Positions 14,187 to 31,356 of a DNA stretch of 64,000 nt are shown piece after piece. A program made the position numbers and the translations under genes. Source of the stretch: an uncultured Chlorobiaceae bacterium. GTDB lineage: Bacteria > Bacteroidota > Chlorobiia > Chlorobiales > Chlorobiaceae. The stretch covers positions 13,273 to 77,272 of the forward strand of contig CAINOC010000036.1 of the NCBI GenBank assembly GCA_903851385.1, in the 5' to 3' direction. Under the pieces are notes generated by a model that did not search any database, was not told where the DNA came from, and was given only the letters and a program-made list of their open reading frames with translations. Each line of letters opens with the position of its first letter. Position 1 is the first letter of the stretch.

Positions 14187-15194
14187 ATGGTTTTAAGTTC
14201 GTTTTTTTTATTTGTTGTCTTTATGATATTTATACTAGTGGCTGTTGGCGTATTTGATTATCTATTGTCTTTTGCGTATAGATACTTGCTTAATACAGCG
14301 AGTTATCAGAAGGCTCTTAGTATTAGATATGTTTATCAATTCATATCATTATTTAATGTTTATTATTATTTGTTTAGACCAAATAGAATAATATGTATTT
14401 TAACTGAGGGTTATACGTTGAATATTGTATCAAAAAATGTTTTACTTCGCATTATGTTTTTTGTTGGTCGAATTATTTCATATACCAATAGTGTAAGTAA
14501 GAGTCAATACATAAATTCACATATATCATTAATAAAATCAGGAAAATACCCTTTGGGTATTTATGATAATTTTTTAAATATAATTAATGGTCAAACTGTT
14601 GCTGTTGTTGGCCCTGCTTACAGCGTTAAAGAAGATGGAGCTGAGATTGACGGATATGATATTGTTATAAGGACTTCGTATGGGTTTTATAGTGAGCTTG
14701 ATCCAAAAATTTATGGAGTAAGAACCGATGTGTCTTTTTTTAATAACGAGGCATCTGATCTTTATGGTGAACAGTTCTTTGAGAAAATATCAAAAATACT
14801 TTTCATAGTATTTAAGTTAAACTTATTCCCTTTTCAAAATAATATGGTTTTAAAGAATAAAGCAAAATTCTCTGAAGATTATAAAATATTTGATCCTGGT
14901 GGAGCAAATCAAATTCCCATTATAATCCAAGACCTTTTGCATTATAATCCAAAAAAAATTAAAGTGTTTAAGTCTGATCTTTATACCAATTCTGTATTGT
15001 GTGATAATATAGATATTAAAAATAATATTATAATTCCATTGACTGTACATGATTGCTTTAGTCAAATTCTTTTTTTAAAGTTTATAAAAAAAGTGACAAA
15101 TAATATGGTTGAGTTTGATGAGATATTAGATGACCTGATAAATGATTCAGTATTCGAGTATGCGCGTAAACTTGAAAGTAATTATAAGTTATAA
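14187..15194 (+). CDS. AT-rich putative GT29-like (sialylmotif-L) glycosyltransferase
   Basis: TVAVVGPA...DGAEIDGYDIVIRT resembles sialylmotif L; N-terminal hydrophobic segment; very AT-rich (bases 14521-14580: 11 of 60 are G+C). Confidence 0.55.
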   Translation: MVLSSFFLFVVFMIFILVAVGVFDYLLSFAYRYLLNTASYQKALSIRYVYQFISLFNVYYYLFRPNRIICILTEGYTLNIVSKNVLLRIMFFVGRIISYTNSVSKSQYINSHISLIKSGKYPLGIYDNFLNIINGQTVAVVGPAYSVKEDGAEIDGYDIVIRTSYGFYSELDPKIYGVRTDVSFFNNEASDLYGEQFFEKISKILFIVFKLNLFPFQNNMVLKNKAKFSEDYKIFDPGGANQIPIIIQDLLHYNPKKIKVFKSDLYTNSVLCDNIDIKNNIIIPLTVHDCFSQILFLKFIKKVTNNMVEFDEILDDLINDSVFEYARKLESNYKL

Positions 15195-15241
15195 AAAATA
15201 GGTCATTTGTCCAATTGATTCAAAATATACATTTCCCTAAA

Positions 15242-16240
15242 ATGCTTACTAATACATCTATTCTAATAACCGGTGGCACCGGCTCTTTTGGCCAAACATT
15301 TGTTCCCCTAACCCTTGCCAAATATAACCCTCGTCGCCTTGTCATTTACTCCCGAGACGAAATGAAACAGTGGGAAATGGCCAAACTTTATGGCAACGAC
15401 CCAAGAGTACGTTTTTTCATAGGCGATGTACGCGATAAAGATCGCCTTGCCCGTGCTCTTACAGGTATTGATTATGTCGTTCACGCAGCAGCAACTAAAA
15501 TCGTTCCCACAGCCGAGTACAACCCATTTGAGTGCGTCAAAACAAATGTCATTGGAGCCATGAACCTCATTGACGCTAGTATAGATCAGGGTGTTAAACG
15601 TGTTGTGGCCCTTTCAACTGACAAGGCAAGTAGTCCGGTGAATCTTTATGGCGCAACCAAACTAACTTCCGACAAACTTTTTATAGCTGGTAATTCATAT
15701 TCAGGCACAAAAGACACTCGTTTTGCCGTTGTACGTTACGGAAACGTTATGGGCTCAAGGGGATCGGTGATCCCTTTCTTTCTTGCCCTTGCGGATCAAG
15801 GTGTTTTACCCATTACCGATGAGCGGATGACTCGCTTCATGATAACACTTGAGCAGGGAGTCGAACTTGTTTGGCATGCCTTCGAGGATACAGTTGGTGG
15901 TGAAATCTATGTTAAAAAGATTCCATCCATGACACTGGTGGATATTGCGCGTGCCGTTGCACCAGATGCGCACTATGATATAGTAGGTATTCGTCCTGGT
16001 GAAAAACTGCATGAACAGATGATTAGCTTTGAGGATGCTCCGCATACTTATGAATATACAAGCCATTACAAAATATTGCCAGCAATCCACAATTGGAGCC
16101 GTGACCCTGAGAGAATCAACGGAGGGAACCCCGTTGGTCTTGACTTTACCTACCGTTCAGACAACAACACACAATGGATGAGCATTGATGCATTACGTTC
16201 TTGGATTCAGGTGAACCGTGAACATATTGGCAAGATCTGA
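15242..16240 (+). CDS. pseB: UDP-N-acetylglucosamine 4,6-dehydratase (inverting)
   Basis: ITGGTGSFG, SRDEMKQ, HAAATKIVP.AEYNP, STDKA..P.NLYGATK, RYGNV.GSRGSV, RPGEKLHE. Confidence 0.95.
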   Translation: MLTNTSILITGGTGSFGQTFVPLTLAKYNPRRLVIYSRDEMKQWEMAKLYGNDPRVRFFIGDVRDKDRLARALTGIDYVVHAAATKIVPTAEYNPFECVKTNVIGAMNLIDASIDQGVKRVVALSTDKASSPVNLYGATKLTSDKLFIAGNSYSGTKDTRFAVVRYGNVMGSRGSVIPFFLALADQGVLPITDERMTRFMITLEQGVELVWHAFEDTVGGEIYVKKIPSMTLVDIARAVAPDAHYDIVGIRPGEKLHEQMISFEDAPHTYEYTSHYKILPAIHNWSRDPERINGGNPVGLDFTYRSDNNTQWMSIDALRSWIQVNREHIGKI

Positions 16241-16245
16241 CCACT

Positions 16246-17424
16246 ATGATTCCCTACGGACGTCAAAATATTAACCAGGCCGATATCGACGCGGTCGTTA
16301 AGGTTCTGCAGTCAGAATTTATAACCCAAGGCCCCGTTGTCCCGGCTTTCGAAAAAGTCGTTGCCAGTTATTGCAGCGCGCTGCATGCAGTAGCAGTCAA
16401 CAGTGCTACTAGCGCATTGCACATCGCATGTCTTGCCTTGGGTGTCTGTAAGGGTGATATTGTCTGGACAACGCCCATAACTTTTGTGGCCAGTGCCAAT
16501 TGTGCACTGTATTGCGGTGCAATGGTGGATTTTGTGGATATAGATCCGAAAACGTACAACCTGAGCGTTGAACGCCTAGAGGAAAAGCTTGTAAAGGCTG
16601 AAAAGGCGGGCACTTTGCCCAAAGTCGTTATTCCTGTGCATCTGTGCGGTCAACCTTGTGATATGGAAGGTATTAATTCCCTCAGTAAATACTATGGCTT
16701 TAAAATTATTGAAGATGCCTCACACGCAATTGGAGGGCGCTATAAAGATGAACCTATAGGCAACTGCCGATATAGTGACATCACTATTTTTAGCTTTCAT
16801 CCCGTCAAAATAATCACGACAGGGGAGGGTGGGATGACGTTAACCAATAACAAGCAATTGGCAAAAAGCATGCGCCTCTTGCGTTCTCATGGCATTACAA
16901 CTGATCCTGCAGATATGCATCCTCGGCCTGAGGGAGAATTTTGGAATTACCAACAGATAAATCTCGGGTATAACTACCGCATGACAGATATTCAGGCAGC
17001 GTTGGGGCTAAGTCAAATGCAACGGCTTAATGATTTTGTTTCTAAGCGTCATACTATCGCAAAGCAATACAATCAAATGTTATCTGCCCTGCCAGTAGTT
17101 CAACCTTGGCAGCATCCTGATAGCTATTCAAGCTTCCATCTTTATGTTATTCGCTTGAAACTCGATGAAATCAACAAGACACACAGGGAAGTCTATGAGA
17201 TGCTCAGGGCTGCAGGGGTACTCGTTAACCTTCATTATATACCTGTTTATCGCCAGCCATATTATGAGCAAATGGGATTTTGTGCGGGTTACTGTGCTGA
17301 AGCGGAGCAATATTATTCAGAGGCGATTAGCCTGCCTATGTATCCGGGACTTAGCGAGCTTCAGCAGGATTATGTGGTGACAGTAATTGAAAATGCGTTA
17401 AATGGTCAGGATAATCATGATTAA
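16246..17424 (+). CDS. pseC: UDP-4-amino-4,6-dideoxy-N-acetyl-beta-L-altrosamine transaminase
   Basis: MIPYGRQ, NSATSALH, EDASHA, FSFHPVKIITTGEGG (PLP Lys), GYNYRMTDIQAALG. Confidence 0.93.
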   Translation: MIPYGRQNINQADIDAVVKVLQSEFITQGPVVPAFEKVVASYCSALHAVAVNSATSALHIACLALGVCKGDIVWTTPITFVASANCALYCGAMVDFVDIDPKTYNLSVERLEEKLVKAEKAGTLPKVVIPVHLCGQPCDMEGINSLSKYYGFKIIEDASHAIGGRYKDEPIGNCRYSDITIFSFHPVKIITTGEGGMTLTNNKQLAKSMRLLRSHGITTDPADMHPRPEGEFWNYQQINLGYNYRMTDIQAALGLSQMQRLNDFVSKRHTIAKQYNQMLSALPVVQPWQHPDSYSSFHLYVIRLKLDEINKTHREVYEMLRAAGVLVNLHYIPVYRQPYYEQMGFCAGYCAEAEQYYSEAISLPMYPGLSELQQDYVVTVIENALNGQDNHD

Positions 17425-18475
17425 TAAGTTGTTAAGCAACATCCCCGGCTCAGCTGGGATGATAATTAACAGTCGTATCGGCTGTAAGGAATTATGGGAT
17501 CAGACTTTCAACAGCCTACCTTATAAGTCGGTTGCATACTCGAATACCAGCCTTGATTATCAGTTAGCATATCAGCAGGGGCATGGCGGGAGCTGGTTTG
17601 ATTTTTCGTCAGTTATTTATTCGGATAATAAACCGGTCGCTTTATGGCCTCTGACTATCTCAATAAAAGATAATGCGGCAAGATTGACATCTCAGGGTAG
17701 TCCTGTTTTGGCTCCGGTTTTTCTTGCGGATTGTCCGGCCGTGTCCCGCAAGCGGATTATAAAAATTTGCATTGAACTAGCTAATGCTCTTGCAATTGCT
17801 TATAAAATAAGCGAATGGGAAAGTGGCGAATCATTTTCCCGTTCAATCGGCATGAGCGAATGGCATATTCAATCCATGGGAAGAGACTCTCTCTGCCATG
17901 TGTTTCATGAACTTTATATTGACCTTGGGTTAGATATTGCCGAAATAAAAAGAAATTTTCGTAAAAGATTTAAATCACTTGTTGTTTCCGGTTCTAAGTT
18001 ATGGGCGGTCGGTGTTCTTGATGGCCAGAATGATGGGGAGATATGGTCAGAGTTTCGTGATTTGCACCATAAGGTCTCAGGCAGAGTCACCCGATCTGAT
18101 GAAACATGGATGATGCAATATCAGGATATTCTATTCGGGCGTGCTTTTTTGGTCTGGTTAAGAAACAGCTGTGGTGAAATGGTAGGGGGAGGACTTTTTA
18201 ACTTTACGGATGATGAGGGAGTTTATGCCGTTGGGGCATATGATCGTACCCTTTTTGATAAACCTTTGGGGCATGTTGTTCAATATAGAGCCATTGAAGA
18301 GCTGAAAAAACGCAATGTAAGCTGGTATAAAATAGGTGTTAGACCCTATGCTTCAGACAATCCAAAACCCACTGAGAAGGAAATATCAATTGGAGAGTTC
18401 AAGCAGGGTTTCTCATCCCACTGTTTTCCGCACTATCGCCTGACACACAACGTTGTTCAACAACAAGAGGCTTGA
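17417..18475 (+). CDS. FemAB-like / GNAT-fold acyl or aminoacyl transferase
   Basis: C-terminal FemAB-like block (YIDL...IKRNFRKRFKSLV; YAVGAY..., FKQGF); embedded in the pse block. Confidence 0.65.
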   Translation: MINKLLSNIPGSAGMIINSRIGCKELWDQTFNSLPYKSVAYSNTSLDYQLAYQQGHGGSWFDFSSVIYSDNKPVALWPLTISIKDNAARLTSQGSPVLAPVFLADCPAVSRKRIIKICIELANALAIAYKISEWESGESFSRSIGMSEWHIQSMGRDSLCHVFHELYIDLGLDIAEIKRNFRKRFKSLVVSGSKLWAVGVLDGQNDGEIWSEFRDLHHKVSGRVTRSDETWMMQYQDILFGRAFLVWLRNSCGEMVGGGLFNFTDDEGVYAVGAYDRTLFDKPLGHVVQYRAIEELKKRNVSWYKIGVRPYASDNPKPTEKEISIGEFKQGFSSHCFPHYRLTHNVVQQQEA

Positions 18476-18683
18476 GACTGGAGATGGGCTTACATTTTCT
18501 GTGGCCTGAACACATGAATTTGACCTGAGATTATGTTGAAAACAGTTTGGAACGAGTTGCGCCGCTGCCTGTTCACCAAGACATTTTGTCATCATTGTTA
18601 ACAAGACGTTTTATGTATTCAACAGCAAGCTGCATTACATTACTCTGAGTAACGATGCGTTTAAATATTATCGATATAGTTAG

Positions 18684-19568
18684 GTGACAGTTCTGGAAGA
18701 GACGAAGCTTGCTCTTGGTACAGCTCAATTTGGTTTGCCATACGGCATTGCAAATCAAACCGGCCAGGTAAGCAGGGAGGATGTCTCTGCGATGCTGCAA
18801 CTTGCAGCATCCAATGGAATTGATACCCTTGATACGGCGATTGTCTATGGAGAGAGTGAAGTTGCTCTTGGGCATGCAGGTACTCAGGGTTTCAAGTTGG
18901 TGACAAAGCTGCCGGCACTGCCGAATGACTGCCCTCATGTTCTTACTTGGGTTATGGAGCAGGTTGGCGCCTCATTTACTCGTCTCGGGGTGAGCTCTTT
19001 TTATGCTTTGTTGCTGCATCGTCCGGAGCAACTGCTTGGTCCGCTTGGAAAAGAGTTGTATGAAGCATTATATGCCTTGAAAGAGCGCGGCAAAGTGCAA
19101 AAAGTCGGTGTTTCCATCTATAACCCTCTTGAACTGGATGAACTGACCCGACTATTTCATTTTGATCTTGTGCAAGCTCCTTTTAATATTATTGATAGTC
19201 GTCTCCATCGGACAGGCTGGCTTCAACGGCTCAAGGATGATGAGGTTGAAATTCATACCCGTTCAGCTTTTTTGCAGGGTTTGCTACTTATGCCGGAAGA
19301 GAACATGCCGTCAAAATTCACTCCCTGGAGTAATTTATTTCAGAGATGGTATACCTGGCTTGCAGAACACCATATCTCTGCAGTTCAGGCTTGTCTGGAA
19401 TTTTCACTCTCCTTTCCCGAAATTGATCGGGTTATAGTTGGCGCCGACAGCCTCAATCAGCTTGATGAAATTATTAAAGCTGCCCGCATGACAATTCCTG
19501 ACAATCTTCCTGATCTTTATTGTGAGGCAGAAAACCTTATTAATCCTGCACGCTGGTCCTGTTTATGA
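18684..19568 (+). CDS. Aldo/keto reductase
   Basis: LALGTAQFGLPYG, DTAIVYGESE, LLLHRP, GVSIY, VQAPFN, IHTRS.FLQGLL; GTG start. Confidence 0.88.
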   Translation: MTVLEETKLALGTAQFGLPYGIANQTGQVSREDVSAMLQLAASNGIDTLDTAIVYGESEVALGHAGTQGFKLVTKLPALPNDCPHVLTWVMEQVGASFTRLGVSSFYALLLHRPEQLLGPLGKELYEALYALKERGKVQKVGVSIYNPLELDELTRLFHFDLVQAPFNIIDSRLHRTGWLQRLKDDEVEIHTRSAFLQGLLLMPEENMPSKFTPWSNLFQRWYTWLAEHHISAVQACLEFSLSFPEIDRVIVGADSLNQLDEIIKAARMTIPDNLPDLYCEAENLINPARWSCL

Positions 19569-21592
19569 AAATCGTTGCCCTTGTTCAGGCCCGCATGGGT
19601 TCAACTCGCCTGCCAAATAAGGTTATGAAACTTATCGGTGGCATACCAATGATTGAGTTGTTGTTAGAAAGGTTATCAAAGTCAAACGAGCTTGACCAAA
19701 TTGTTGTAGCTACTTCAGTCGATAAACGCAATCAACCGCTGGTTTCCCATATAAGAAAGCTTGGTTATGCCTGTGAGCAGGGAAGTGAAAATGACGTTCT
19801 CGACCGCTATGTAGAGGCAGCTAAAGCCCACAATGCGGATGTGGTTGTCCGGATAACCGGTGACTGCCCGCTTGTCGATCCAGAGCTTGTTGACGAATGT
19901 ATTCGCGGGTTCAAGGCTGCCGGAGTTGATTACTATAGCAATGCCAATCCCCCCTCATATCCTGATGGTCTTGATGTAGAGGTTTTCAGTTATAAAGCTC
20001 TTGAAAAGGCGGCAAAGGAAGCCGAGGAGCCGTTTGAACGTGAGCATGTTACTCCTTATCTGCGCAAGTCCGCTCTTTTCAGTATTGCTTCAATGGAGCC
20101 TGTCGAGGATTTGTCTTCACTGCGCTGGACTGTTGATGATCCTGTAGACTTTGTTGTAATTGAAAGTGTGTTCCGGCATTTTCATCCGCGCACGGATTTC
20201 GCATGGAGGGAAGTGCTTGATCTCCAGCATCAACAGCCAGAAATATTCAGCATTAACAGGAATACCCCTCGTAACGAAGGAGCGACTATGGGTACCGGTC
20301 AGAAATTATGGAAACGCGCGAAGCAAATCATCCCTGGCGGCAACATGTTGCTTTCCAAACGAGCTGAAATGTTTCTTCCTGATCAATGGCCGGCCTATTT
20401 CAGTAAGGCCAAAGGCTGTAAAGTGTGGGATATGGACGGAAAAGAATATATCGATATGTCCATCATGGGAATTGGTACCAATATTCTTGGTTATGGTCAT
20501 CCGGAAGTCGACGACGCAGTGAGAGCAACTATTGATGCTGGTAACATGTCAACCTTCAATTGTCCGGAAGAGGTCTATTTGGCAGAGAAGTTGATTGAGC
20601 TGCATCCTTGGGCCGACATGGCTCGCCTTGCCCGTTCTGGGGGCGAAGCCAATGCAATAGCAATTCGTATAGCTCGTGCAGCTTCAGGCAAAGATAAAGT
20701 AGCTATTTGTGGCTATCATGGTTGGCACGACTGGTATCTTTCGGCAAATCTTGGTGACGACAAAAGTCTGGACGGACATTTATTACCAGGGCTTGAGCCT
20801 AATGGTGTTCCAAGAAGCTTGCGAGGCACTGTATTTCCTTTCAATTACAACAACATTGCTGAACTTGAAGCGCTGGTTAACACACATGATATCGGTGTGA
20901 TCAAGATGGAAGTTGTTCGTAACGCCGGACCTGAGGACAACTTTCTGCAAAAAGTTCGCCAGCTTGCTACAGATCGAGGTATTGTGCTGATTTTTGATGA
21001 GTGCACCTCGGGTTTCCGCGAAACTTATGGAGGTCTTCACAAAAAGTATGGGGTTGAGCCCGATATGGCCATGTTTGGTAAAGCCTTGGGTAATGGATAT
21101 GCTATCACAGCCACGATTGGTAGGCGCGAAGTCATGGAAGCTGCACAAACCACATTCATTAGCAGCACCTTCTGGACAGAGCGCATCGGCCCCACTGCCG
21201 CACTCAAAACGCTTGAAGTTATGGAACGGGTCAAATCTTGGGAAACAATCACCAAAACAGGTTTGATTATCCGACAAGGCTGGCAGCAACTTGCCGATAA
21301 GCATGATCTTAAGTTAAATGATTGGGGATTGCCTGCGCTTACAGGGTTTTCTTTTTTAGCGACCAATGCGCTTGCTTACAAGACCCTTGTTACCCAGGAA
21401 ATGCTTGCTAAAGGCTATCTTGCTGGTAACAGTGTCTATGTTTGTACTGAACATACTTCGGTTGTCGTGGCTGATTTCCTTGAAGCGCTTGATCCAATAT
21501 TTGCTCTTATCAAAGAGTGCGAAGAAGGACGGGATGTAATGAGCCTGCTGAAAGGCCCGATATGCCATGGTGGTTTTAAACGATTGAATTGA
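19565..21592 (+). CDS. SpsF-type cytidylyltransferase fused to a class III aminotransferase
   Basis: N-domain QARMGSTRLPNK, GSENDVLDRY, RITGDCPL, REHVTP, RWTVD; C-domain IPGG, DMDGKEYID, SGGEAN, GYHGWHDW, FDECTSGFR, FGKALGNG. Confidence 0.88.
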   Translation: MKIVALVQARMGSTRLPNKVMKLIGGIPMIELLLERLSKSNELDQIVVATSVDKRNQPLVSHIRKLGYACEQGSENDVLDRYVEAAKAHNADVVVRITGDCPLVDPELVDECIRGFKAAGVDYYSNANPPSYPDGLDVEVFSYKALEKAAKEAEEPFEREHVTPYLRKSALFSIASMEPVEDLSSLRWTVDDPVDFVVIESVFRHFHPRTDFAWREVLDLQHQQPEIFSINRNTPRNEGATMGTGQKLWKRAKQIIPGGNMLLSKRAEMFLPDQWPAYFSKAKGCKVWDMDGKEYIDMSIMGIGTNILGYGHPEVDDAVRATIDAGNMSTFNCPEEVYLAEKLIELHPWADMARLARSGGEANAIAIRIARAASGKDKVAICGYHGWHDWYLSANLGDDKSLDGHLLPGLEPNGVPRSLRGTVFPFNYNNIAELEALVNTHDIGVIKMEVVRNAGPEDNFLQKVRQLATDRGIVLIFDECTSGFRETYGGLHKKYGVEPDMAMFGKALGNGYAITATIGRREVMEAAQTTFISSTFWTERIGPTAALKTLEVMERVKSWETITKTGLIIRQGWQQLADKHDLKLNDWGLPALTGFSFLATNALAYKTLVTQEMLAKGYLAGNSVYVCTEHTSVVVADFLEALDPIFALIKECEEGRDVMSLLKGPICHGGFKRLN

Positions 21593-23110
21593 ATGACTTC
21601 GATGAATATTGCCATTCGTATCGATGCTTCAAGCCAAATCGGAACCGGACATTTTATGCGTTGCTTAACTTTAGCCGATGCGTTGAGCCTGCGAGGGGCA
21701 CAAATTCGCTTTATCAGCCGTAATTTACTAGAGCACTTGCAGGATTTGTTGCTGAATAAGGGTTATGAATTCATGATGCTTAAGAAGCAAACAAATGAAA
21801 CGTCTAGTGATGACTTGGCTCATTCTCATTGGCTGGGGGCTACTCAGCAATACGATGCAGATGAGGCGCTTAAACTCCTCTCAGATAGAATCTGGGATTG
21901 GCTGGTTGTTGATCATTACGCATTGGATGCTCGCTGGGAGTCAGCACTTCGAAAATCAGCAAAGCGAATTTTGGTTATTGACGATCTTGCTGATCGTATG
22001 CATGACTGCGATATATTGCTCGATCAGAATTATTATGCAGATAAGGAAACACGCTACACAGGGAAGGTTCCTGCAAACTGCCAGCTATTGCTTGGGCCGC
22101 GTTATGCTCTTCTTCGAGAAGAATTCCGTCAATGGCGTCAGCAGGTTAAACCTCGCACCGGACTAGTAAAAAGAATCCTTGTGTTTTTTGGTGGCGTTGA
22201 TGCCGATAACTTCACAGGATTAACCATTGAAGCACTGGCTGGTCTTGGTCTGAGCGGGGTGCATATTGATGTAGTCATAGGGGCACAACATCCTTATCGT
22301 GAACAGATTGAATCAGCGTGTTTAGAATATATGTTTTCCTGTTATGTACAAACTGATCGAATGGCAGAGTTGATGGCAAAAGCAGACTTGGCTATTGGAG
22401 CAGGAGGTTCCGCGACTTGGGAGCGTTGTTGTTTAGGATTACCAGCATTTGCAATCTGCACAGCTTCAAATCAGAGCAAGCAGGTTGCCGATGCTGCCAG
22501 CAGAGGGTTGCTGTACACATCTGAAATAAATGACGGCTTAAAGACTTTGATCAAGCGTCATTTACCTGCACTCATAGACAATAGCCACTTGATTAAATTC
22601 ATCTCAAATAATGACTTGCAAACTGTTGATGGTAGAGGTGTTTCGCGAGTCATCAGAAACATGGGTTGCAGCAGGATTGAAATTCGAATTGCAACAGAAG
22701 GTGACTCGGAGAAAATTTTCGAGTGGCGTAATCACCAAACAGTCAGGGCTGTGTCGCGTAACAGTGAGGTAATCAGTTGGGAGGATCATCAGAAATGGCT
22801 TGCTGAAGTCCTGTCATCTCAAGTACAAGCGTTGCTTATTGGGTATAGTAATGGCTTGGAAATAGGTGTGGTTCGATTTGATAGCAGGGATTATGAAGCT
22901 GAAGTTTCGATCTATCTTGTTCCTGGTATAAAAGAATCTGGATTAGGAAGCGACCTTTTACAGATTGGTGAGCAGTGGTTTACAACTCACTTTCCCCAAA
23001 TTCAAAAAATCTTTGCTTGTGTTCTCGGAGATAACAGCCGTTCTAACCATCTGTTTTTGGGGGCAGGCTATCGGGTTGAGTCAACCTCTTACATTAAAGA
23101 GCTCGCATGA
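21593..23110 (+). CDS. pseG: PseG UDP-sugar hydrolase fused to a PseH-like GNAT N-acetyltransferase
   Basis: RIDAS.QIGTGH.MRC, VDHY, VIDDLADR, FFGGVD, GAGGSATWERC; C-terminal GNAT domain (IFEWRNH..VR...). Confidence 0.88.
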   Translation: MTSMNIAIRIDASSQIGTGHFMRCLTLADALSLRGAQIRFISRNLLEHLQDLLLNKGYEFMMLKKQTNETSSDDLAHSHWLGATQQYDADEALKLLSDRIWDWLVVDHYALDARWESALRKSAKRILVIDDLADRMHDCDILLDQNYYADKETRYTGKVPANCQLLLGPRYALLREEFRQWRQQVKPRTGLVKRILVFFGGVDADNFTGLTIEALAGLGLSGVHIDVVIGAQHPYREQIESACLEYMFSCYVQTDRMAELMAKADLAIGAGGSATWERCCLGLPAFAICTASNQSKQVADAASRGLLYTSEINDGLKTLIKRHLPALIDNSHLIKFISNNDLQTVDGRGVSRVIRNMGCSRIEIRIATEGDSEKIFEWRNHQTVRAVSRNSEVISWEDHQKWLAEVLSSQVQALLIGYSNGLEIGVVRFDSRDYEAEVSIYLVPGIKESGLGSDLLQIGEQWFTTHFPQIQKIFACVLGDNSRSNHLFLGAGYRVESTSYIKELA

Positions 23111-24165
23111 CTATGATTGATGGGTTCAAAATAGCTGACAGGATGATAGGGAAAAACCATTCTCCTTTCATCATAGCAGAAATGTCTGGCAACCATAACC
23201 AGTCACTTGATCGGGCATTGGAAATCGTTGAAGCTTTAGCAATGTCCGGTGCTCACGCCTTGAAAATTCAGACCTATACTCCTGAAACAATGACTCTTGA
23301 TCTGGATGAGCGTGAGTTTCATATCAGTGACCCAAATAGTTTATGGGCAGGCACATCGCTATATAAGCTTTACAGCGAAGCATATACTCCATGGGAGTGG
23401 CACAAGCCGATTTTTGATCGGGCACACGAACTAGGTCTGATTCCGTTTAGTACGCCTTTTGATGATACAGCAGTCGACTTTCTTGAAACTCTTGATGTGC
23501 CATGTTATAAGATAGCCTCGTTTGAGAACACAGATATACCTCTTATTCGTCGGGTGGTTGCCACAGGAAAGCCAGTGATTATTTCAACAGGCATGGCAAC
23601 CGTTGCCGAACTGGACGAAACAGTTCGAGCAGCACGCGAAGCTGGCTGCAAAGACTTGATTCTGCTCAAGTGTACTAGCACCTATCCAGCTACTGCAGAT
23701 AACACTAATATTTTAACTATCCCACATCTTCGTAATCTCTTCGATTGTGAAGTAGGGCTATCCGATCACACTATGGGTGTTGGGGTTTCAGTTGCCAGTG
23801 TTGCACTTGGTGCAACTGTTATCGAGAAACACTTCACTCTTAATCGTGCTGATGGAGGTGTAGACAGTGCATTCTCAATGGAGCCAGCTGAAATGGCCCA
23901 ACTCGTGTTAGAAACAGAACGAGCATGGCAGTCCCTCGGTCAAGTTAGCTATGGTACTACAGAAGCTGAAATAAAGTCTCTTCAATATCGCCGATCACTC
24001 TATGTGGTAAAAGACCTTAAAGCAGGAGATGTTCTCACTCATGACAATGTGCGCGCAATTCGACCGGGATTAGGTATAGCGACTAAGTATATTGATGTGG
24101 TTATAGGAAAAACAGTGAAGCAGAATGTGACGCGAGGAACAGCTATGTCTTGGGCAATCTTGTGA
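23107..24165 (+). CDS. pseI: Pseudaminic acid synthase
   Basis: IAEMSGNHNQS, KIQTYT, AYTPWEWH, KIASFE.TD, KCTSTYP, GLSDHT, EKHFTL.R.DGGVDS.FS, SAF domain. Confidence 0.93.
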   Translation: MTMIDGFKIADRMIGKNHSPFIIAEMSGNHNQSLDRALEIVEALAMSGAHALKIQTYTPETMTLDLDEREFHISDPNSLWAGTSLYKLYSEAYTPWEWHKPIFDRAHELGLIPFSTPFDDTAVDFLETLDVPCYKIASFENTDIPLIRRVVATGKPVIISTGMATVAELDETVRAAREAGCKDLILLKCTSTYPATADNTNILTIPHLRNLFDCEVGLSDHTMGVGVSVASVALGATVIEKHFTLNRADGGVDSAFSMEPAEMAQLVLETERAWQSLGQVSYGTTEAEIKSLQYRRSLYVVKDLKAGDVLTHDNVRAIRPGLGIATKYIDVVIGKTVKQNVTRGTAMSWAIL

Positions 24166-24234: not shown

Positions 24235-25242
24235 ATGATGCTTCAAAAGTTAAAACAAAGCCTGCACTTACTTGCCCCTGCATCTATATTATCACAAACA
24301 GAATTTGGTAAGCTGACAGGGGAATTTTCCTTGAAAGCTTTGGATGTGGGAGCAAGAGGTGGCTTTGATACTTTACTGACTCCTATTGCTGATATCGTCG
24401 AATTCATTGGTTTTGAACCTGATGAAGCGGAAGTTAAACGACTCGAAGCTGATCGTTTATCGAAAGGTCCCTGGGCAAGCGTTCGGTACTTGCCAGTGGC
24501 ATTAGGTAATACTGCTGATTCTAGATTGTTGTTTTTGACGCAGAGTCCTGGTTGTTCCTCTTTGTTGCCATCCAACCCTTATATGTACACTCGTTATGGT
24601 AGGGAGGAACTTTTCACGGTGGTTGGCACCACCGAAGTGGCGACTGTTATGCTTGATGATGCGGCGAGTAAGTATTCATTCCAAGAGGCTTCATATTTAA
24701 AGATAGATATTCAGGGTGCTGAACTGGAAGTTCTTAAAACAGGCCAAAAGCTTCTTTCAGACTCTATTGTTGCTATTCGTGCGGAGGTCGAGTTCCAGCA
24801 AATTTATAAAGATCAACCGCTTTTTCGAGATATCGATACTTTTCTTTCGGAGCAAGGTTTTCACCTCGTTGACTTTCATCAACCTGTCACTTGGCCTTTG
24901 CAAGCTTCTGGGGCTTCTTTAAAGAGTCCTTTTGTGATTGGTCGTGATTGCTTGGGCGAACTGATTCATGCAGATGCTTTGTATTTTCGGAACCTTGATG
25001 ATTTTTCCGATGCCAATGAGAACGGGATTTCCGTTTGTATAAAAGCGGCCATGATTGCTCTTGCTTATGGACGCCTTTCTTATGCTGCCGTATTATTTAG
25101 TAAAAAGCGGGTTAAAGAGTATCTCGCAAATGCTTATGGTGTCGATGTTGAGAAAGCGATGGAAGAAGCAAAGTTGATGATGATTAAGCACAACAAAAGA
25201 AATCGATTATTGTCATTGGTCCGTCTTATCCTTGGTAGATAA
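24235..25242 (+). CDS. FkbM-family methyltransferase
   Basis: LDVGARGG, GFEPD, LKIDIQGAELEVL, EVEF..IYK.QPLF. Confidence 0.85.
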   Translation: MMLQKLKQSLHLLAPASILSQTEFGKLTGEFSLKALDVGARGGFDTLLTPIADIVEFIGFEPDEAEVKRLEADRLSKGPWASVRYLPVALGNTADSRLLFLTQSPGCSSLLPSNPYMYTRYGREELFTVVGTTEVATVMLDDAASKYSFQEASYLKIDIQGAELEVLKTGQKLLSDSIVAIRAEVEFQQIYKDQPLFRDIDTFLSEQGFHLVDFHQPVTWPLQASGASLKSPFVIGRDCLGELIHADALYFRNLDDFSDANENGISVCIKAAMIALAYGRLSYAAVLFSKKRVKEYLANAYGVDVEKAMEEAKLMMIKHNKRNRLLSLVRLILGR

Positions 25243-25443
25243 TGTTAAAGATATCCTTTTCATTATGCTTGTAATCAAAAGAGACCGGGTGAGTGAATAA
25301 ATTGCATTGAGCGCAGTTCAAATTCTTCCTTAAGGAATAATTAGTTGAATATTGGGTTATTAGTATGTATTCGAGGGGCAGGTGAAAGGCTAAGGCCCGC
25401 TATAGAGAGACAGAAGTTGCGTCATCCCCTAAAAGAAATTTTT

Positions 25444-26565
25444 ATGAGTAAGTTGAGAGTTCTTGCTCCACTTACCCAGATTCCTCTAGTGTTATCTAAA
25501 GAGATAAGGTTTTTCTTGCCTTCATATCCAATTCCAAATTCAAAAGCATTTGCAGTCGTTCATGAGCTCTGTGCTGCCGGGATATCAAGGAGTATGATTT
25601 GGATCCCAGGGCCTTCTGAACAATATACAGTAACTAGCTTCACACGCTTGTTGTTTCGTCTTCCAAGGGCCTTGTTTTTCTTGCTTATTGTAGTGAGTCG
25701 TGCTCCTGGTCTTGACTGCATTGATCTTCAAATATTACTTGGTAGGGAGGTTTTTCGACACTTCTTGTATCGTCATCCAATGGTTAAACCAATCATCATC
25801 AGCGATGTGAGTCCTGGTCTTCACATGCTCTGGAGTGCAGCAACAATAGCAGGATGTGGCGCACTGTGGTGGCAAGACGATTATCATCATATCGAATCAC
25901 TGCCATACCCTGTTGTAGCAGCAGCTGTACTGAATCATGGCGGTTATGAGGCTGTTTTGCGATCATCGCCATTAGCAATGATTGTTTCTCGCCCATCAGT
26001 CATACTTAAGCCCATTCGTCCAATTCCCGATCACCCGAGAGTAGGAATTGCCACAAATAACTTTATTGTTGCAAGTTCGGAACAGCGAGAGCTTCTGGAT
26101 CAGATTCGTCAAGCATTTGGTGTCGCCGAGCTTTATATTCGCCTTCACCCGAACAGCAAGCTTGTACCCGCTGACTTTCCAGAGCATTGGATAACAATAG
26201 CTCCAGTTGATGAGTCCTTCGAGCAGTTTGCCTCAAAAATAGATATTGTTGTTGTTGGAAATTCTGCAGTTCAGTTAAGACTTATTTGCGAAGGGGTGCC
26301 GGTGCTGCATATTTCAGGGTTAGACCCTCATGGTTATGACTTATATGGATATTGCAAAAGGGGGTTTACATACGGTGCTGAAATAATAGGTAATAACATC
26401 TTGTCTGATATCACCACTTATTTTAACAACTCAGAATCTCAAGTTCGACTTGCTGATTATGTTGGAGTTAGTGATAATGTCAAATTGGAAGGACTTTCAC
26501 AACTGAATTATTGTTTATATGGAGCTCCTCGAAGACCATATAGACCAAAGGTGCTTGTTTTATGA
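25444..26565 (+). CDS. Hypothetical protein, putative CMP-ulosonate-dependent GT-B transferase
   Basis: C-half has IRLHP and VVGNSAVQL..ICEGVPV, resembling the HP and NST motifs of KpsS/sialyltransferase-like folds. Confidence 0.45.
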   Translation: MSKLRVLAPLTQIPLVLSKEIRFFLPSYPIPNSKAFAVVHELCAAGISRSMIWIPGPSEQYTVTSFTRLLFRLPRALFFLLIVVSRAPGLDCIDLQILLGREVFRHFLYRHPMVKPIIISDVSPGLHMLWSAATIAGCGALWWQDDYHHIESLPYPVVAAAVLNHGGYEAVLRSSPLAMIVSRPSVILKPIRPIPDHPRVGIATNNFIVASSEQRELLDQIRQAFGVAELYIRLHPNSKLVPADFPEHWITIAPVDESFEQFASKIDIVVVGNSAVQLRLICEGVPVLHISGLDPHGYDLYGYCKRGFTYGAEIIGNNILSDITTYFNNSESQVRLADYVGVSDNVKLEGLSQLNYCLYGAPRRPYRPKVLVL

Positions 26566-27773
26566 CAGCTCAAAACCCCACTATTGCCTTTCTTCTTTCA
26601 ATGTCTCTCGATCCTATTGCGGGAGGGGTTCAAAGAACTACCTGGCAGCTAGGGCACTATTTCGCTCAACAAGGTTGGGAAGTTTTATTTATATCATTGG
26701 CTTTGGATGGTCATAAGACTCCCTTAGCCGGTAGTTTGCATTTTCCAAGTGAAGATATCAATGGAGATTCCAGACTTCTCAAGCGCTTTCTTGCTTCGAC
26801 CTTTCAAAATCAACCTCCCGATGTTGTCATTAATCATACTGAGTTGCTTTCAGTCTCTGATAAAGTATTGTTTGAATTACGCCAAACAGAATTTTCATAT
26901 AGAATAGTATCCTGCTTTAGGAATAATCCTTCTATGTTTAAAGATAATCATCGATCTCTTGTTCGTCATCTGTTGCGCAACAAACGTTGGTTCCTTTTTT
27001 TAATTGATCACCCACTGGGTTGGAGGATTGTGTTACTATGGCATCGATTGAAAAATCGGCATGTGTTTTACCAGGTTTTATCACGCTGTGATCGGTATAT
27101 GCTTCTTTCACCGACGTTCATTTCTGAATTGCGCTGGTATGTTCCAGGTTTGGACCAATCTAAAATTGTTATCATTCCGAATGCTTTCCAGATGCCGGAC
27201 ATAAGTGTTTTACCGACAAAGCGCAAGCACCTCTTGTTTGTTGGCCGGTTGGAGCAGGCACAAAAAAATATTCTTATGTTGCCGAATATCTGGCAGAAAG
27301 TTCAGCACCGTCTTCCAGAATGGGAGCTTCATATCGTTGGTGATGGACCCGACAGGGCAGAGCTCGAATCGAAAATCGAGAAGGTGTCTCTTGAGCGGAT
27401 TTACCTGCATGGGAAGATGGACCCGACAGATCATTATCGTGCTGCAAAAGTTTTTCTCATGGTTTCTTTTTTTGAGGGGTTTGGGAATACGCTGATTGAA
27501 GCGCAAATGCATGGTGTTGTGCCAGTTGCCTTTCGAAGCTATTCAGCAGTGGAGTGGATGTTGAATGATGGAGTCGATGCAGTGCTTGTTCCTCCCTTTG
27601 ATGTAGATCGTTATGCAAATGCATTGGTTCAGTTGGCCACAGATGAAGATAGGTGGACTTGTATGAGTGCTGCGGCAGTATCTAATGCACAACGTTTCTC
27701 CGAAAAAGTTGTCGGAGATATCTGGTTTAAAGTTCTGTCAGATGTGATGAACGAGCCTCTTGTATCATCGTAA
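26562..27773 (+). CDS. GT4 glycosyltransferase
   Basis: GGVQR, LFVGRLEQAQK, IVGDGP, FEGFGNTLIEAQMHG. Confidence 0.88.
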   Translation: MTAQNPTIAFLLSMSLDPIAGGVQRTTWQLGHYFAQQGWEVLFISLALDGHKTPLAGSLHFPSEDINGDSRLLKRFLASTFQNQPPDVVINHTELLSVSDKVLFELRQTEFSYRIVSCFRNNPSMFKDNHRSLVRHLLRNKRWFLFLIDHPLGWRIVLLWHRLKNRHVFYQVLSRCDRYMLLSPTFISELRWYVPGLDQSKIVIIPNAFQMPDISVLPTKRKHLLFVGRLEQAQKNILMLPNIWQKVQHRLPEWELHIVGDGPDRAELESKIEKVSLERIYLHGKMDPTDHYRAAKVFLMVSFFEGFGNTLIEAQMHGVVPVAFRSYSAVEWMLNDGVDAVLVPPFDVDRYANALVQLATDEDRWTCMSAAAVSNAQRFSEKVVGDIWFKVLSDVMNEPLVSS

Positions 27774-29059: not shown

Positions 29060-29104
29060 TGGTTGATTATTTACTATTGGCAATACCTGTCAAAACACAC
29101 ACAG

Positions 29105-30220
29105 ATGAGTTTGTTTAACAAGCTCCGTATCTTCGCTCGTAACGCTATAGGGTATTCAACAAAACGAAAAATTATAGTTATTGAATCCGATGATTGGGGA
29201 GCTATAAGAATGCCATCAAGGCAGGCTTTTGAATCAATAAATAAAAAAGGGCTTGACTCATCGGGAGATTCTTTTCGTTATAACAAGTATGATACTCTGG
29301 CTGATAAAAATGATTTAACGCAACTGCTTGAAACGTTATTCTCATTTCGAGATAAACAAGGGAATCATCCAGTCATTACCGCTCTTACTATTGTTGCTAA
29401 TCCTGACTTTGATAAGATTCGTGACAGTGAATTTAACGAATACTATTATGAACCCTTTACAACGACCTTGGAACGTTACTACGGCTCCGATACCCCATTT
29501 CCTTTGTGGATAGAAGGATTTCAAAACAAGGTATTTCTTCCTCAGTTTCATGGCCGCGAACACTTGAATGTAGCGGTTTGGATGAAGGCTCTGAAGCGGA
29601 ATGACATTGAAGCACGTTTTGCCTTTGATCACGAGTTATGGGGTTTTAACAATCAGCATCCCTTAGGTATTACGTTTCAGTCAGCTTTTGAACTGGAATC
29701 TTTGGATCAACTTTCACTTCAAGCTCAAATTCTACAGGATGGGTTAAGGCTTTTTGAACAATTGTTTGGTTACCGTGCATCATATTTGGTTACACCGAAT
29801 AGTCCGTTTAATAAACAACTTGAAGCTGTTGTTGCTAATGAAGGAATACGCTTTATATTTGCCTCGAAAATACAGAATGAACCAATTGGCCCAGGGATAA
29901 CCAGAAAATGCTTTCATTATCCGGGTCAACAAAACCTGTATGGACAATATTATCTATCACGTAACTGTTTTTTTGAACAAAGCGAACCCGGAAAAGATTG
30001 GGTTGACAGTTGCCTGAATGAGATAAGTATGGCGTTTTGTTTCCACAAGCCAGCGGTTATTAGTTCACATCGTGTTAATTACATTGGTGCTCTTGATCCG
30101 TCAAATAGAAAACAAGGTTTGCTTCAGCTTAGAGAGCTCTTAACTAACATTCTTAAAATTTGGCCTGATGTTGAATTTATGAGTTCTGCTGATCTTGGCG
30201 AATTGATTGCTCAGTCATAA
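29105..30220 (+). CDS. Polysaccharide deacetylase-like protein (paralog 1)
   Basis: IESDDWG, QFHGREHLN, ISSHRVNY (NodB-like Asp-Asp/His motifs). Confidence 0.65.
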   Translation: MSLFNKLRIFARNAIGYSTKRKIIVIESDDWGAIRMPSRQAFESINKKGLDSSGDSFRYNKYDTLADKNDLTQLLETLFSFRDKQGNHPVITALTIVANPDFDKIRDSEFNEYYYEPFTTTLERYYGSDTPFPLWIEGFQNKVFLPQFHGREHLNVAVWMKALKRNDIEARFAFDHELWGFNNQHPLGITFQSAFELESLDQLSLQAQILQDGLRLFEQLFGYRASYLVTPNSPFNKQLEAVVANEGIRFIFASKIQNEPIGPGITRKCFHYPGQQNLYGQYYLSRNCFFEQSEPGKDWVDSCLNEISMAFCFHKPAVISSHRVNYIGALDPSNRKQGLLQLRELLTNILKIWPDVEFMSSADLGELIAQS

Positions 30221-31356
30221 TGAGTGTAAGCACCATTAGGTCAGGCATTACCCGCAATCTTATCAATATTCCAGGTTGGCGGTCTAATAGGAAAATTGTA
30301 GTTATCGAGTCAGATGACTGGGGTAGTGTCCGAATGGACTCAATAGATGCTTATGATTATTTCCTCACAAAAGGTTTGCCTGTAGATAACTGTCCATATA
30401 ACAGTTACGATGCTCTTGAGTGCAACGAAGATCTTAAGCGGTTGTTCGAAGTGCTTGGATCTGTCATAGATTGTAACGGTAATCCTGCAGTGCTGACAGC
30501 TAACGCTGTAATGGCAAATCCTGATTTTGAAAAGATTCGCGAGAGTGGATTTCAGAAATACTACTATGAGCCGTTTACCAAAACACTTGAACGTTATCCT
30601 GCTCATGATCAGGTTTATAGCCTGTATCAGAAAGGGATAAAAGAAAATCTTTTCAAACCGCAATTTCATGGACGAGAGCATCTGAATGTTACGCGTTGGA
30701 TGCGAGCATTGCTTGGTGGTGATGGCTATGCTTTTATGGCTTTTAAATGGAACATGTTCAGTTTGTACACTGGTGTTAATTCGAGTTGTCGCAGTGAATA
30801 TCTGGATGCATTTGCTATGGAAAGTCTTGAAGATCAGCTCCAGTTAAGAGCAATAATCGCTTCAGGGTTACAGCTTTTTCATCAGTTAATGGGCTATCAT
30901 TCGCGGACCTGTATTGCTCCTTGTTACACATGGAATTCTGATGTTGAAGAGGTTCTCTCTGTCAATGGAGTAACAGCATTACAAGGGATGATAATACAGT
31001 GGGTGCCGGTCTATGGAGCTGAGGGCTTACACCAAAAAAAATATCATTATACTGGTCAACGAAACCAACAGACACAGTGCTATCTTGTTAGAAATTGCTT
31101 TTTCGAACCAACACTAACAAATGGAACGGATCCTGTGCCTGATTGCCTTGCTCGAATCCAGACTGCATTCTATTGGCATAGGCCCGCCATCATCTCTTCT
31201 CACCGCCTGAATTATATGGGTTTTTTAAATTCATCCAACAGAGACAAAAACCTGAATCATCTTAAAAAATTGTTGCTTGCTATTAAAAAGTACTGGCCTG
31301 ATGTGGAGTTTTTCTCGTCTGATCAGTTAGGTGATCTGGTTACAGGTGTTGAATAA
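30220..31356 (+). CDS. Polysaccharide deacetylase-like protein (paralog 2)
   Basis: Same motifs as paralog 1: IESDDWG, QFHGREHLN, ISSHRLNY, WPDVEF. Confidence 0.65.
   Translation: MSVSTIRSGITRNLINIPGWRSNRKIVVIESDDWGSVRMDSIDAYDYFLTKGLPVDNCPYNSYDALECNEDLKRLFEVLGSVIDCNGNPAVLTANAVMANPDFEKIRESGFQKYYYEPFTKTLERYPAHDQVYSLYQKGIKENLFKPQFHGREHLNVTRWMRALLGGDGYAFMAFKWNMFSLYTGVNSSCRSEYLDAFAMESLEDQLQLRAIIASGLQLFHQLMGYHSRTCIAPCYTWNSDVEEVLSVNGVTALQGMIIQWVPVYGAEGLHQKKYHYTGQRNQQTQCYLVRNCFFEPTLTNGTDPVPDCLARIQTAFYWHRPAIISSHRLNYMGFLNSSNRDKNLNHLKKLLLAIKKYWPDVEFFSSDQLGDLVTGVE

Follow-up and report, generated by a model that had tools for sequence, protein, structure and literature searches.

The stretch of DNA analysed here, 64,000 nt of contig CAINOC010000036.1 from an uncultured Chlorobiaceae bacterium, is referred to as the window and holds a very large polysaccharide locus. 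Within this locus, a block for the biosynthesis of pseudaminic acid (Pse) was recognised with Pfam and NCBIfam profiles at 15215..24165 (+). It consists of PseB, PseC, a FemAB-like protein, an aldo-keto reductase, a PseF-aminotransferase fusion, a PseG-PseH fusion, and PseI. The PseG part matched TIGR03590 with 309 bits against a cut-off of 153 bits, and PseI reached 497.6 bits, which was above its cut-off. The block is followed by an FkbM-family methyltransferase (24235..25242, +, assigned by Pfam/NCBIfam) and then by the gene studied here (25345..26565, +). It encodes a protein of an unclassified family, which we propose as a candidate glycosyltransferase (GT) that depends on Pse activated with cytidine monophosphate (CMP-Pse). 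In agreement with the original prediction, which was made from the sequence alone and placed it last in the Pse block, this target gene comes after those of PseB, PseC, PseF, PseG-PseH, PseI, and the methyltransferase. Its stop codon, ending at 26565, overlaps the start codon of a GT4 glycosyltransferase gene (26562..27773, +) in the form ATGA, and the two genes are translationally coupled through this overlap.

The gene had been read from an ATG at 25444, but this codon is probably internal and a TTG at 25345 is preferred. The frame is open from this TTG, with the sequence AAGGA 8 nt upstream of it. Moreover, the 33 residues that precede ATG 25444 (consensus LLxCLRxxxxRLRPA) are conserved in most of the aligned homologues from several phyla. 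We therefore took TTG 25345 as the start, so that the target gene most likely covers 25345-26565, an open reading frame (ORF) of 406 amino acids. The reported motifs were all located in this longer frame. IRLHP occupies residues 265-269 (nt 26137-26151), GNSAVQL residues 305-311 (nt 26257-26277), and GVPV residues 317-320 (nt 26293-26304), and they lie within the stretches ELYIRLHPNSKL and VVVGNSAVQLRLICEGVPVLHI. The target gene is present in one copy in the genome to which the window belongs.

The target gave zero matches in Pfam, NCBIfam, and the sequences of the Protein Data Bank (PDB), both as a single sequence and as a profile. A Pfam scan of 30 family members returned no match to PF05159 even at E<=1, and among 10 remote relatives scanned at E<=0.1 no domain was found except for one sulfotransferase fusion. 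This fusion is P0196 (714 amino acids), which carries the sulfotransferase domain at its N-terminus. The nearest ESM Atlas clusters were without any Pfam 38.1 family. A word-indexed search detected 71 homologue clusters, and HMMER, run exhaustively over 1.84 billion representatives, detected 186 clusters at E<=1e-3. Every named cluster was labelled "hypothetical". The protein is thus unannotated, as had been predicted, and it belongs to a real, previously unclassified GT-B family.

The conservation of the motifs was computed over 70 remote homologues. The invariant His-Pro (HP) motif, R266-L-H268-P269-N-S271 (26140..26157, +), lies after strand beta2 of the C-terminal Rossmann domain and is the predicted contact of the nucleotide phosphate of CMP. 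A lone HP dipeptide in about 400 amino acids is expected by chance. However, H268 and P269 were conserved in 100% of the homologues (R266 in 91%), and this conservation goes beyond chance. Downstream of it, V-G305-N306-S307-A-V-Q-L...G317-V-P-V (26254..26304, +) spans strand beta4, a loop, the N-terminus of a helix, and beta5. This segment was assigned as the GT-B phosphate-binding motif from its conservation and its alignment with Capsule_synth, and G305 (84%), N306 (88%), S/T307 (99%), G317 (98%), and P319 (88%) were all highly conserved. The loop after beta5 (HISGLDPHGYDLYGY, 26323..26340, +) contains two near-invariant aspartates, D327 (98%) and D332 (97%). In the N-terminal domain (25804..25881, +), conservation and alignment pointed to D154, which follows the strand 148-152, and to W-W-Q177-D-D, with 90% conservation of D154 and 81% of Q177. 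From the sequence comparison, these are candidate residues for binding of the acceptor or the sugar, or for a general base. The positions kept even in remote members were D154, Q177, G234, R266, H268, P269, G305, N306, S/T307, G317, D327, and D332.

An AlphaFold2 model of the target was built from a 30-sequence alignment and reached a predicted local distance difference test score (pLDDT) of 91.9 and a predicted template modelling score (pTM) of 0.89. Foldseek returned a probability of 1.00 to many GT-B enzymes. The match spans residues ~52-395, on which Foldseek and two VIA-align runs agreed, with VIA-align Z values of 11-13.4. The predicted structure is thus unambiguously a GT-B fold with two Rossmann domains, in line with the fold that the original prediction had demanded of the protein. 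In the model, beta2 of the C-terminal domain leads directly into the HP motif. The structural neighbours in VIA-align were UDP-N-acetylglucosamine (UDP-GlcNAc; UDP, uridine diphosphate) 2-epimerases and NeuC (Z 12.2-13.4), and the complex of a bacterial polysialyltransferase with cytidine diphosphate (CDP) (5wcn, Z 13.0, root-mean-square deviation 4.5 A over 254 residues). TarL with CDP-ribitol (Z 11.7) and TagF (Z 9.7) were also found, and MurG and GT1 enzymes ranked lower.

For the comparison with known families, local hhalign was run with a family profile of 126 sequences and with a wide "superfamily" profile of the 70 remote members. The best partner was L038, a divergent protein passing Pfam Capsule_synth, with probabilities of 93% for the family profile and 96% for the wide profile. 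The corresponding values were 9 and 69% for KpsC, 5 and 24% for KpsS, 6 and 90% for Epimerase_2, 18 and 22% for PseG, 0.2 and 0.5% for GT4, and 0.2 and 3% for E. coli NeuS as a single sequence. TagF-like proteins reached 51 and 85%, but only once HP-bearing divergent members were included, since the core TagF-like profiles gave 0.2-1.6%. Single-sequence alignments with E. coli KpsS, KpsC, NeuS, NeuE, and NeuC were all insignificant. In every hhalign alignment the HP of the target fell on the HP or the His of the partner, including the HP of L038, KpsC, and NeuS (the NeuS alignment itself being insignificant). In the same way, VGNSAvQL...GvPV fell on the phosphate-helix motif of the partners, which reads "tINStvG...kpV" in Capsule_synth. 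D154 was aligned with the Asp of the epimerase "GD", and Q177 with the Glu of the epimerase "HvEgG" and of the Capsule_synth "fENG".

KpsS1 (GT118) is a defined retaining polysaccharide Pse transferase of the HP + QxxxD superfamily. The QxxxD motif, a carboxylate-binding Gln and a nucleophilic Asp about 40 residues before HP, defines the retaining transferases of Pse and 3-deoxy-D-manno-oct-2-ulosonic acid (Kdo) (PMC12887879). In KpsS, KpsC, and L038 this motif was found 38-42 residues before HP. The original prediction had likened the HP motif of the target to that of KpsS-like enzymes. This likeness held for the nucleotide-binding half, where the HP of Capsule_synth is the aligned counterpart, and failed for the nucleophile motif QxxxD, which is absent. 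Since HP aligns throughout while QxxxD is without a counterpart, the target family appears as a separate lineage within the group of GT-B proteins that have a His after C-beta2. As far as the profiles can tell, the nucleotide-phosphate site is common to the target family and the CMP-Kdo/CMP-Pse transferases, and the nucleophile is not.

Then, 30 loci with homologues of the target, 10 from species-representative genomes and 20 from metagenomes, were collected, and their genes were identified by tblastn with a reference set. They came from Chlorobiaceae, Cyclobacteriaceae, Saprospiraceae, Chitinophaga, Halomonas, Rhizobium, and Verrucomicrobiota (single loci are given below by their labels, L001 and so on). 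The linkage of the homologue with Pse operons extended over at least five phyla. In nearly all loci with enough upstream sequence it stood directly 3' of PseI or of a PseI-linked WbpG/HisH/HisF module, with PseB, PseC, and PseF upstream, and the identity of PseI was confirmed by scores above the TIGR03586 cut-off. The order PseI-FkbM-target of the window was also seen in L001, L013, and L014, and in L010 FkbM directly precedes the target with PseI ~5 kb upstream. On the other side, most loci have a GT4 or DxD GT-A gene directly 3' of the homologue. The homologue overlaps this gene in the window, L004, L005, and L010, and the GT4 of the window type is found there in L002, L010, L013, L014, L016, and L020.

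PseF is the sole cytidylyltransferase common to all loci, and CMP-Pse is the sole CMP-activated sugar common to them. The remaining glycosyltransferases in the loci are of the GT4, GT2, or DxD GT-A types, which are not known to use CMP-sugars. No Capsule_synth/KpsS1-type and no Maf-type (MptE-like) protein was found in five genomes with the Pse block and the target. In an overlapping set of five genomes, including that of the window (99.96% complete), no TagB-type protein was found. In Tannerella forsythia, knockouts identified TagB-like GT-B proteins with an HP motif as necessary for adding derivatives of Pse or legionaminic acid (Leg). The genes of these nonulosonic acid (NulO) transferases lie just 3' of the CMP-NulO genes, in one strain with only a methyltransferase between them (PMC5420450).

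Taken together, we consider it rather probable that the target represents a new GT-B family of glycosyltransferases that use CMP-Pse, in support of the original prediction, which had inferred a Pse transferase of a new family. The enzyme would take CMP-Pse, or a Pse derivative specific to the locus, from the products of the upstream genes and add Pse to a surface glycan under assembly, which is probably lipid-linked. The C-terminal domain would bind the CMP moiety, with His268 and Arg266 at the phosphate together with the helix N-terminus at N306-S307. The N-terminal domain, with D154 and Q177, would position the acceptor and the sugar and may supply the general base. The absence of QxxxD hints at a mechanism unlike that of KpsS1, and the chemistry may be a direct displacement (inverting), as in the GT38, GT52, and GT80 sialyltransferases. 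Because this family of at least five phyla has neither the QxxxD nucleophile nor a conserved D/E-D/E-G base motif, a distinct catalytic arrangement was considered, in which D154 and/or D327/D332 would act with His268 and Pse would possibly be beta-linked. We give this arrangement a little less than an even chance.

Several observations weigh against a CMP-Pse transferase. In place of QxxxD the target family has G234-x-A-T-N238-x-F-F with no conserved Asp, in a stretch where the alignment is of low confidence, and QDD, which resembles D/E-D/E-G, is not retained across the wider superfamily. The hhalign scores of canonical KpsS, KpsC, and NeuS are insignificant, while Epimerase_2 is nearly as close as L038 by the wide profile (90%). 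By structure, the target matches the UDP-GlcNAc 2-epimerases (Z 13.4) as closely as the polysialyltransferase. Since the top structural rows are tied, the fold alone cannot tell a transferase from a hydrolase or epimerase, and a His after C-beta2 is not specific to CMP donors. In B. subtilis, SpsB has HP and DEG motifs and is encoded beside CMP-Leg genes, but was not required for Leg transfer (PMC7439481). Moreover, loci of the L006/L009 type have a short-chain dehydrogenase/reductase (SDR) and a second cytidylyltransferase directly after the target, so that another CMP- or CDP-activated donor is possible there. These loci also speak for an alternative in which the target would be a GT-B transferase that helps to assemble the same glycan from a different donor, either another CMP/CDP-activated substrate or a UDP-sugar. 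It would build the residue that bears Pse or extend the chain from Pse, and would travel with the Pse genes through joint inheritance of the glycan module. The target indeed always travels with a conserved module for assembly, made up of GT4, deacetylase-like, AsnB-like, Wzy-like, and ABC exporter genes. In L007 (Halomonas pelophila) the homologue lies with GT4, Wzy-like, and deacetylase-like genes while an intact Pse operon is 18 kb away on the same contig, and in L018 its neighbours are a GT4, an AsnB-like gene, and, immediately upstream, a sulfotransferase-like ORF, so that in both it stays with the assembly genes and not with the Pse genes. The CDP-alditol users TarL and TagF are also structural neighbours, and the TagF-family profile reached 51-85%. 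Against this, no second nucleotide-activation gene is common to all loci, and most loci would be left without any candidate Pse transferase, as the KpsS1, Maf, and TagB types were not found in the genomes checked. The position at the boundary between Pse and assembly genes also fits the precedent of the NulO transferases (PMC5420450). We therefore regard another donor as unlikely. It is very improbable that the target is a catalytically inactive, structural, or regulatory GT-B-like protein of the polysaccharide machinery. Some GT-B-like proteins do serve as scaffolds, and the lack of any characterised member leaves room for this, but some twelve polar residues at positions of the canonical GT-B active site hardly vary even between members that are evolutionarily very far apart, which is typical of an enzyme.

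In the other alternative, the target would act in Pse biosynthesis as an enzyme of the Epimerase_2/NeuC type that hydrolyses or epimerises a nucleotide sugar, in particular as a non-orthologous replacement of PseG, the UDP-6-deoxy-AltdiNAc hydrolase. Besides the epimerases and NeuC among the top structural matches and the match of the wide profile to Epimerase_2, D154 falls on the catalytic Asp of "GD" and H268 on the epimerase His. In addition, five genomes (G001-G005) have PseB, PseC, PseF, PseH, PseI, and the target, and no detectable PseG anywhere, which also counts against a transferase since it leaves room for a hydrolase role. Three of these five are isolates of 5-6.8 Mb or a complete chromosome. 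For these reasons, the PseG-less genomes and the epimerase-like fold, the reading as an alternative PseG was taken seriously. However, two of the three catalytic epimerase carboxylates (D95, E117, and E131 in E. coli WecB) are missing in the target, with Gln in place of E117 and no EExNR motif. The target had no match to the PseG model TIGR03590 (NCBIfam) and reached only 18-22% with PseG in hhalign, and a true PseG is present in its own operon and in at least seven other loci. Bona fide PseG coexists with the target in the window, L002, L010, L016, L019, L020, L021, and Halomonas. In a maximum-likelihood tree of 26 target proteins, whose backbone was unresolved, such PseG-context loci occurred in at least five lineages. 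The loss of PseG was instead perfectly complementary to an extra GNAT-like gene of ~184 amino acids, which was found in 0/7 PseG loci and in 8/8 PseG-less loci (L003:6681-7235, L004:7773-8789 in its N-terminal half, L005:7424-8005, L006:1144-1698, L009:1838-2392, and also L022, L024, and L031). This gene occupies the position of PseG before PseH, as in the PseG-GNAT fusions found elsewhere, and may reflect either a variant of the Pse pathway or the replacement of the UDP-sugar hydrolase by a non-orthologous enzyme. The absence of PseG showed no such relation to the target gene, and both GNAT-context clades of the tree showed no acceleration. Among 60 relatives of the genome of the window, six others had PseI above the cut-off together with PseG, and none of the six (0/6) had the target gene. 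In loci where it is separated from the Pse operon, the target is found among the assembly genes. On the co-occurrence with PseG in at least five lineages, the complementarity with the GNAT-like gene, and the phyletic pattern, the role of an alternative PseG was largely rejected, and a hydrolase or epimerase of any kind in Pse biosynthesis is held to be quite unlikely. The same three lines indicated that the target is neither needed for Pse synthesis nor redundant with PseG, and that it behaves as a variable, acceptor-specific assembly gene.

Two of the relatives without the target carry other proteins after the Pse block. One of them (L066:16934-18157) has a 407-amino-acid protein that passes the Pfam cut-off of the GT38 polysialyltransferases. 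It is without HP and has no similarity to the target, and for this reason it supports the idea of a variable transferase slot only weakly. The other (L069:12784-13698) has an HP-motif protein of 304 amino acids, which reached 64% in hhalign with the wide target profile. In the Halomonas locus, a PseI-like pseudogene fragment with two in-frame TAA codons (L007:3660-4088) lies just upstream of the target homologue, and the intact pseI/pseG genes are 18-20 kb off. In G000:C94:3032-3913 and in many genomes of the same genus, NeuB/PseI-like matches of ~210 bits were observed, which cover roughly profile positions 2-270 to 2-300 of 327. Many of them contain one or two in-frame TGA codons, with single cases of TAG and TAA. 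These could be a conserved read-through or selenocysteine site, two adjacent genes, or pseudogenes.

Further parts of the polysaccharide locus were recognised in the window. Its 5' part comprises a Wzc-like kinase, a PglF-like dehydratase, and a fused ABC exporter. A first nonulosonic-acid block includes a cytidylyltransferase, a NeuB-type synthase, a NeuC-type epimerase, a methyltransferase, and the WbpG/HisF/HisH amidotransferase trio. This NeuA/NeuB/NeuC-type block ends with a low-GC ORF of 335 amino acids (14187-15194, +), which matched Pfam GT29 below the threshold (E 5e-4, 19.9 bits against a cut-off of 23) and gave zero matches to PDB sequences. Pfam GT29 is the eukaryote-type sialyltransferase family, and the ORF may encode the transferase of the other nonulosonic acid. 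Within the Pse block, the FemAB-like protein (TIGR04421), the aldo-keto reductase, and the PseF fused to a class-III aminotransferase (675 amino acids) are encoded at 17402-21592 (+), and their presence points to a Pse derivative with unusual N-acylation or some other modification. Downstream of the GT4, the ORF at 27773 encodes a Wzy-like membrane protein. It is followed by two paralogous proteins of ~380 amino acids (29063-30220 and 30220-31356, +) without a Pfam or NCBIfam match. With their motif DDWG...HGREH, these proteins look like polysaccharide deacetylases and not like glycosyltransferases, and in loci of Chlorobi, Bacteroidota, and Halomonas their homologues accompany the target, a GT4, and an AsnB-like gene. 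The 3' remainder of the locus contains an AsnB-like protein, an ATP-grasp protein, further GT4s, an initiating Bac_transf, and an AT3-SGNH acyltransferase.

Pseudaminic acid decorates the capsules, O-antigens, and glycoproteins of many bacteria, and the enzymes that attach it are very poorly known. In the literature considered here, the Pse transferases described for flagellins are of the Maf/FlmG types. For polysaccharides, one enzyme is defined biochemically, KpsS1/GT118 (PMC12887879), and the Tannerella enzymes are defined genetically (PMC5420450). If the target is a CMP-Pse transferase, Pse-containing glycans would become predictable from the genomes of Chlorobi, Bacteroidota, Proteobacteria, and Verrucomicrobiota, and a new catalyst would be available for the chemoenzymatic synthesis of Pse glycosides. 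The family would also provide a data point on the kinship of the HP-motif GT-B lineages, which include epimerases, Kdo, sialyl, and TagF-type transferases. The Pse operons without PseG are a separate puzzle brought up by this analysis.

Compared with known systems, the target has in common with Epimerase_2/NeuC the Asp after an N-domain strand and the His after C-beta2. Unlike these enzymes, it has no Pfam match, lacks two of the three catalytic carboxylates, and is encoded by a gene with the genomic behaviour of an assembly gene rather than of a pathway gene. The Capsule_synth proteins (PF05159; KpsS, KpsC, WbbB, and KrkA; GT99/GT107/GT118/GT140) have a GT-B fold as in the target. In both, HP after beta2 of the C-terminal domain is followed by the phosphate-helix motif (I/G)NS(T/A), and the donors of Capsule_synth are CMP-activated keto-sugar acids, which matches the candidate donor of the target. 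On the other hand, the target has no PF05159 match, no QxxxD, Gln177 in place of the Glu, and an extra conserved N-terminal helical region of ~145 residues. The GT38/GT52/GT80 sialyltransferases (PDB 5wc6/5wcn) resemble the target in the GT-B fold, in an HP in the equivalent place, and in the absence of QxxxD, and they use CMP donors of nonulosonic acids, again as expected for the target. According to Freiberger 2007, as cited in PMC5420450, bacterial GT-B sialyltransferases have an HP and a D/E-D/E-G motif. Members of the close family, the target included, have QDD (177-179) in the corresponding loop of the N-terminal domain, whereas D178 and D179 vary in the wider superfamily. It had no Pfam match to PF07388, PF07922, or PF11477. 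No GT52 (PF07922) or GT80 (PF11477) members were found among 300 sampled Gammaproteobacteria. The transferases Tanf_01245 and TFUB4_00887 of Tannerella forsythia are set apart by their published description, which gives them a TagB/Glyphos_transf domain, while the target has no PF04464 match. These proteins and the target are alike in the HP motif, the predicted GT-B fold, the size of ~400-445 amino acids, and the gene position just 3' of the CMP-NulO genes, and the layout of the Tannerella Leg locus parallels the order PseI-FkbM-target in the window (PMC5420450).

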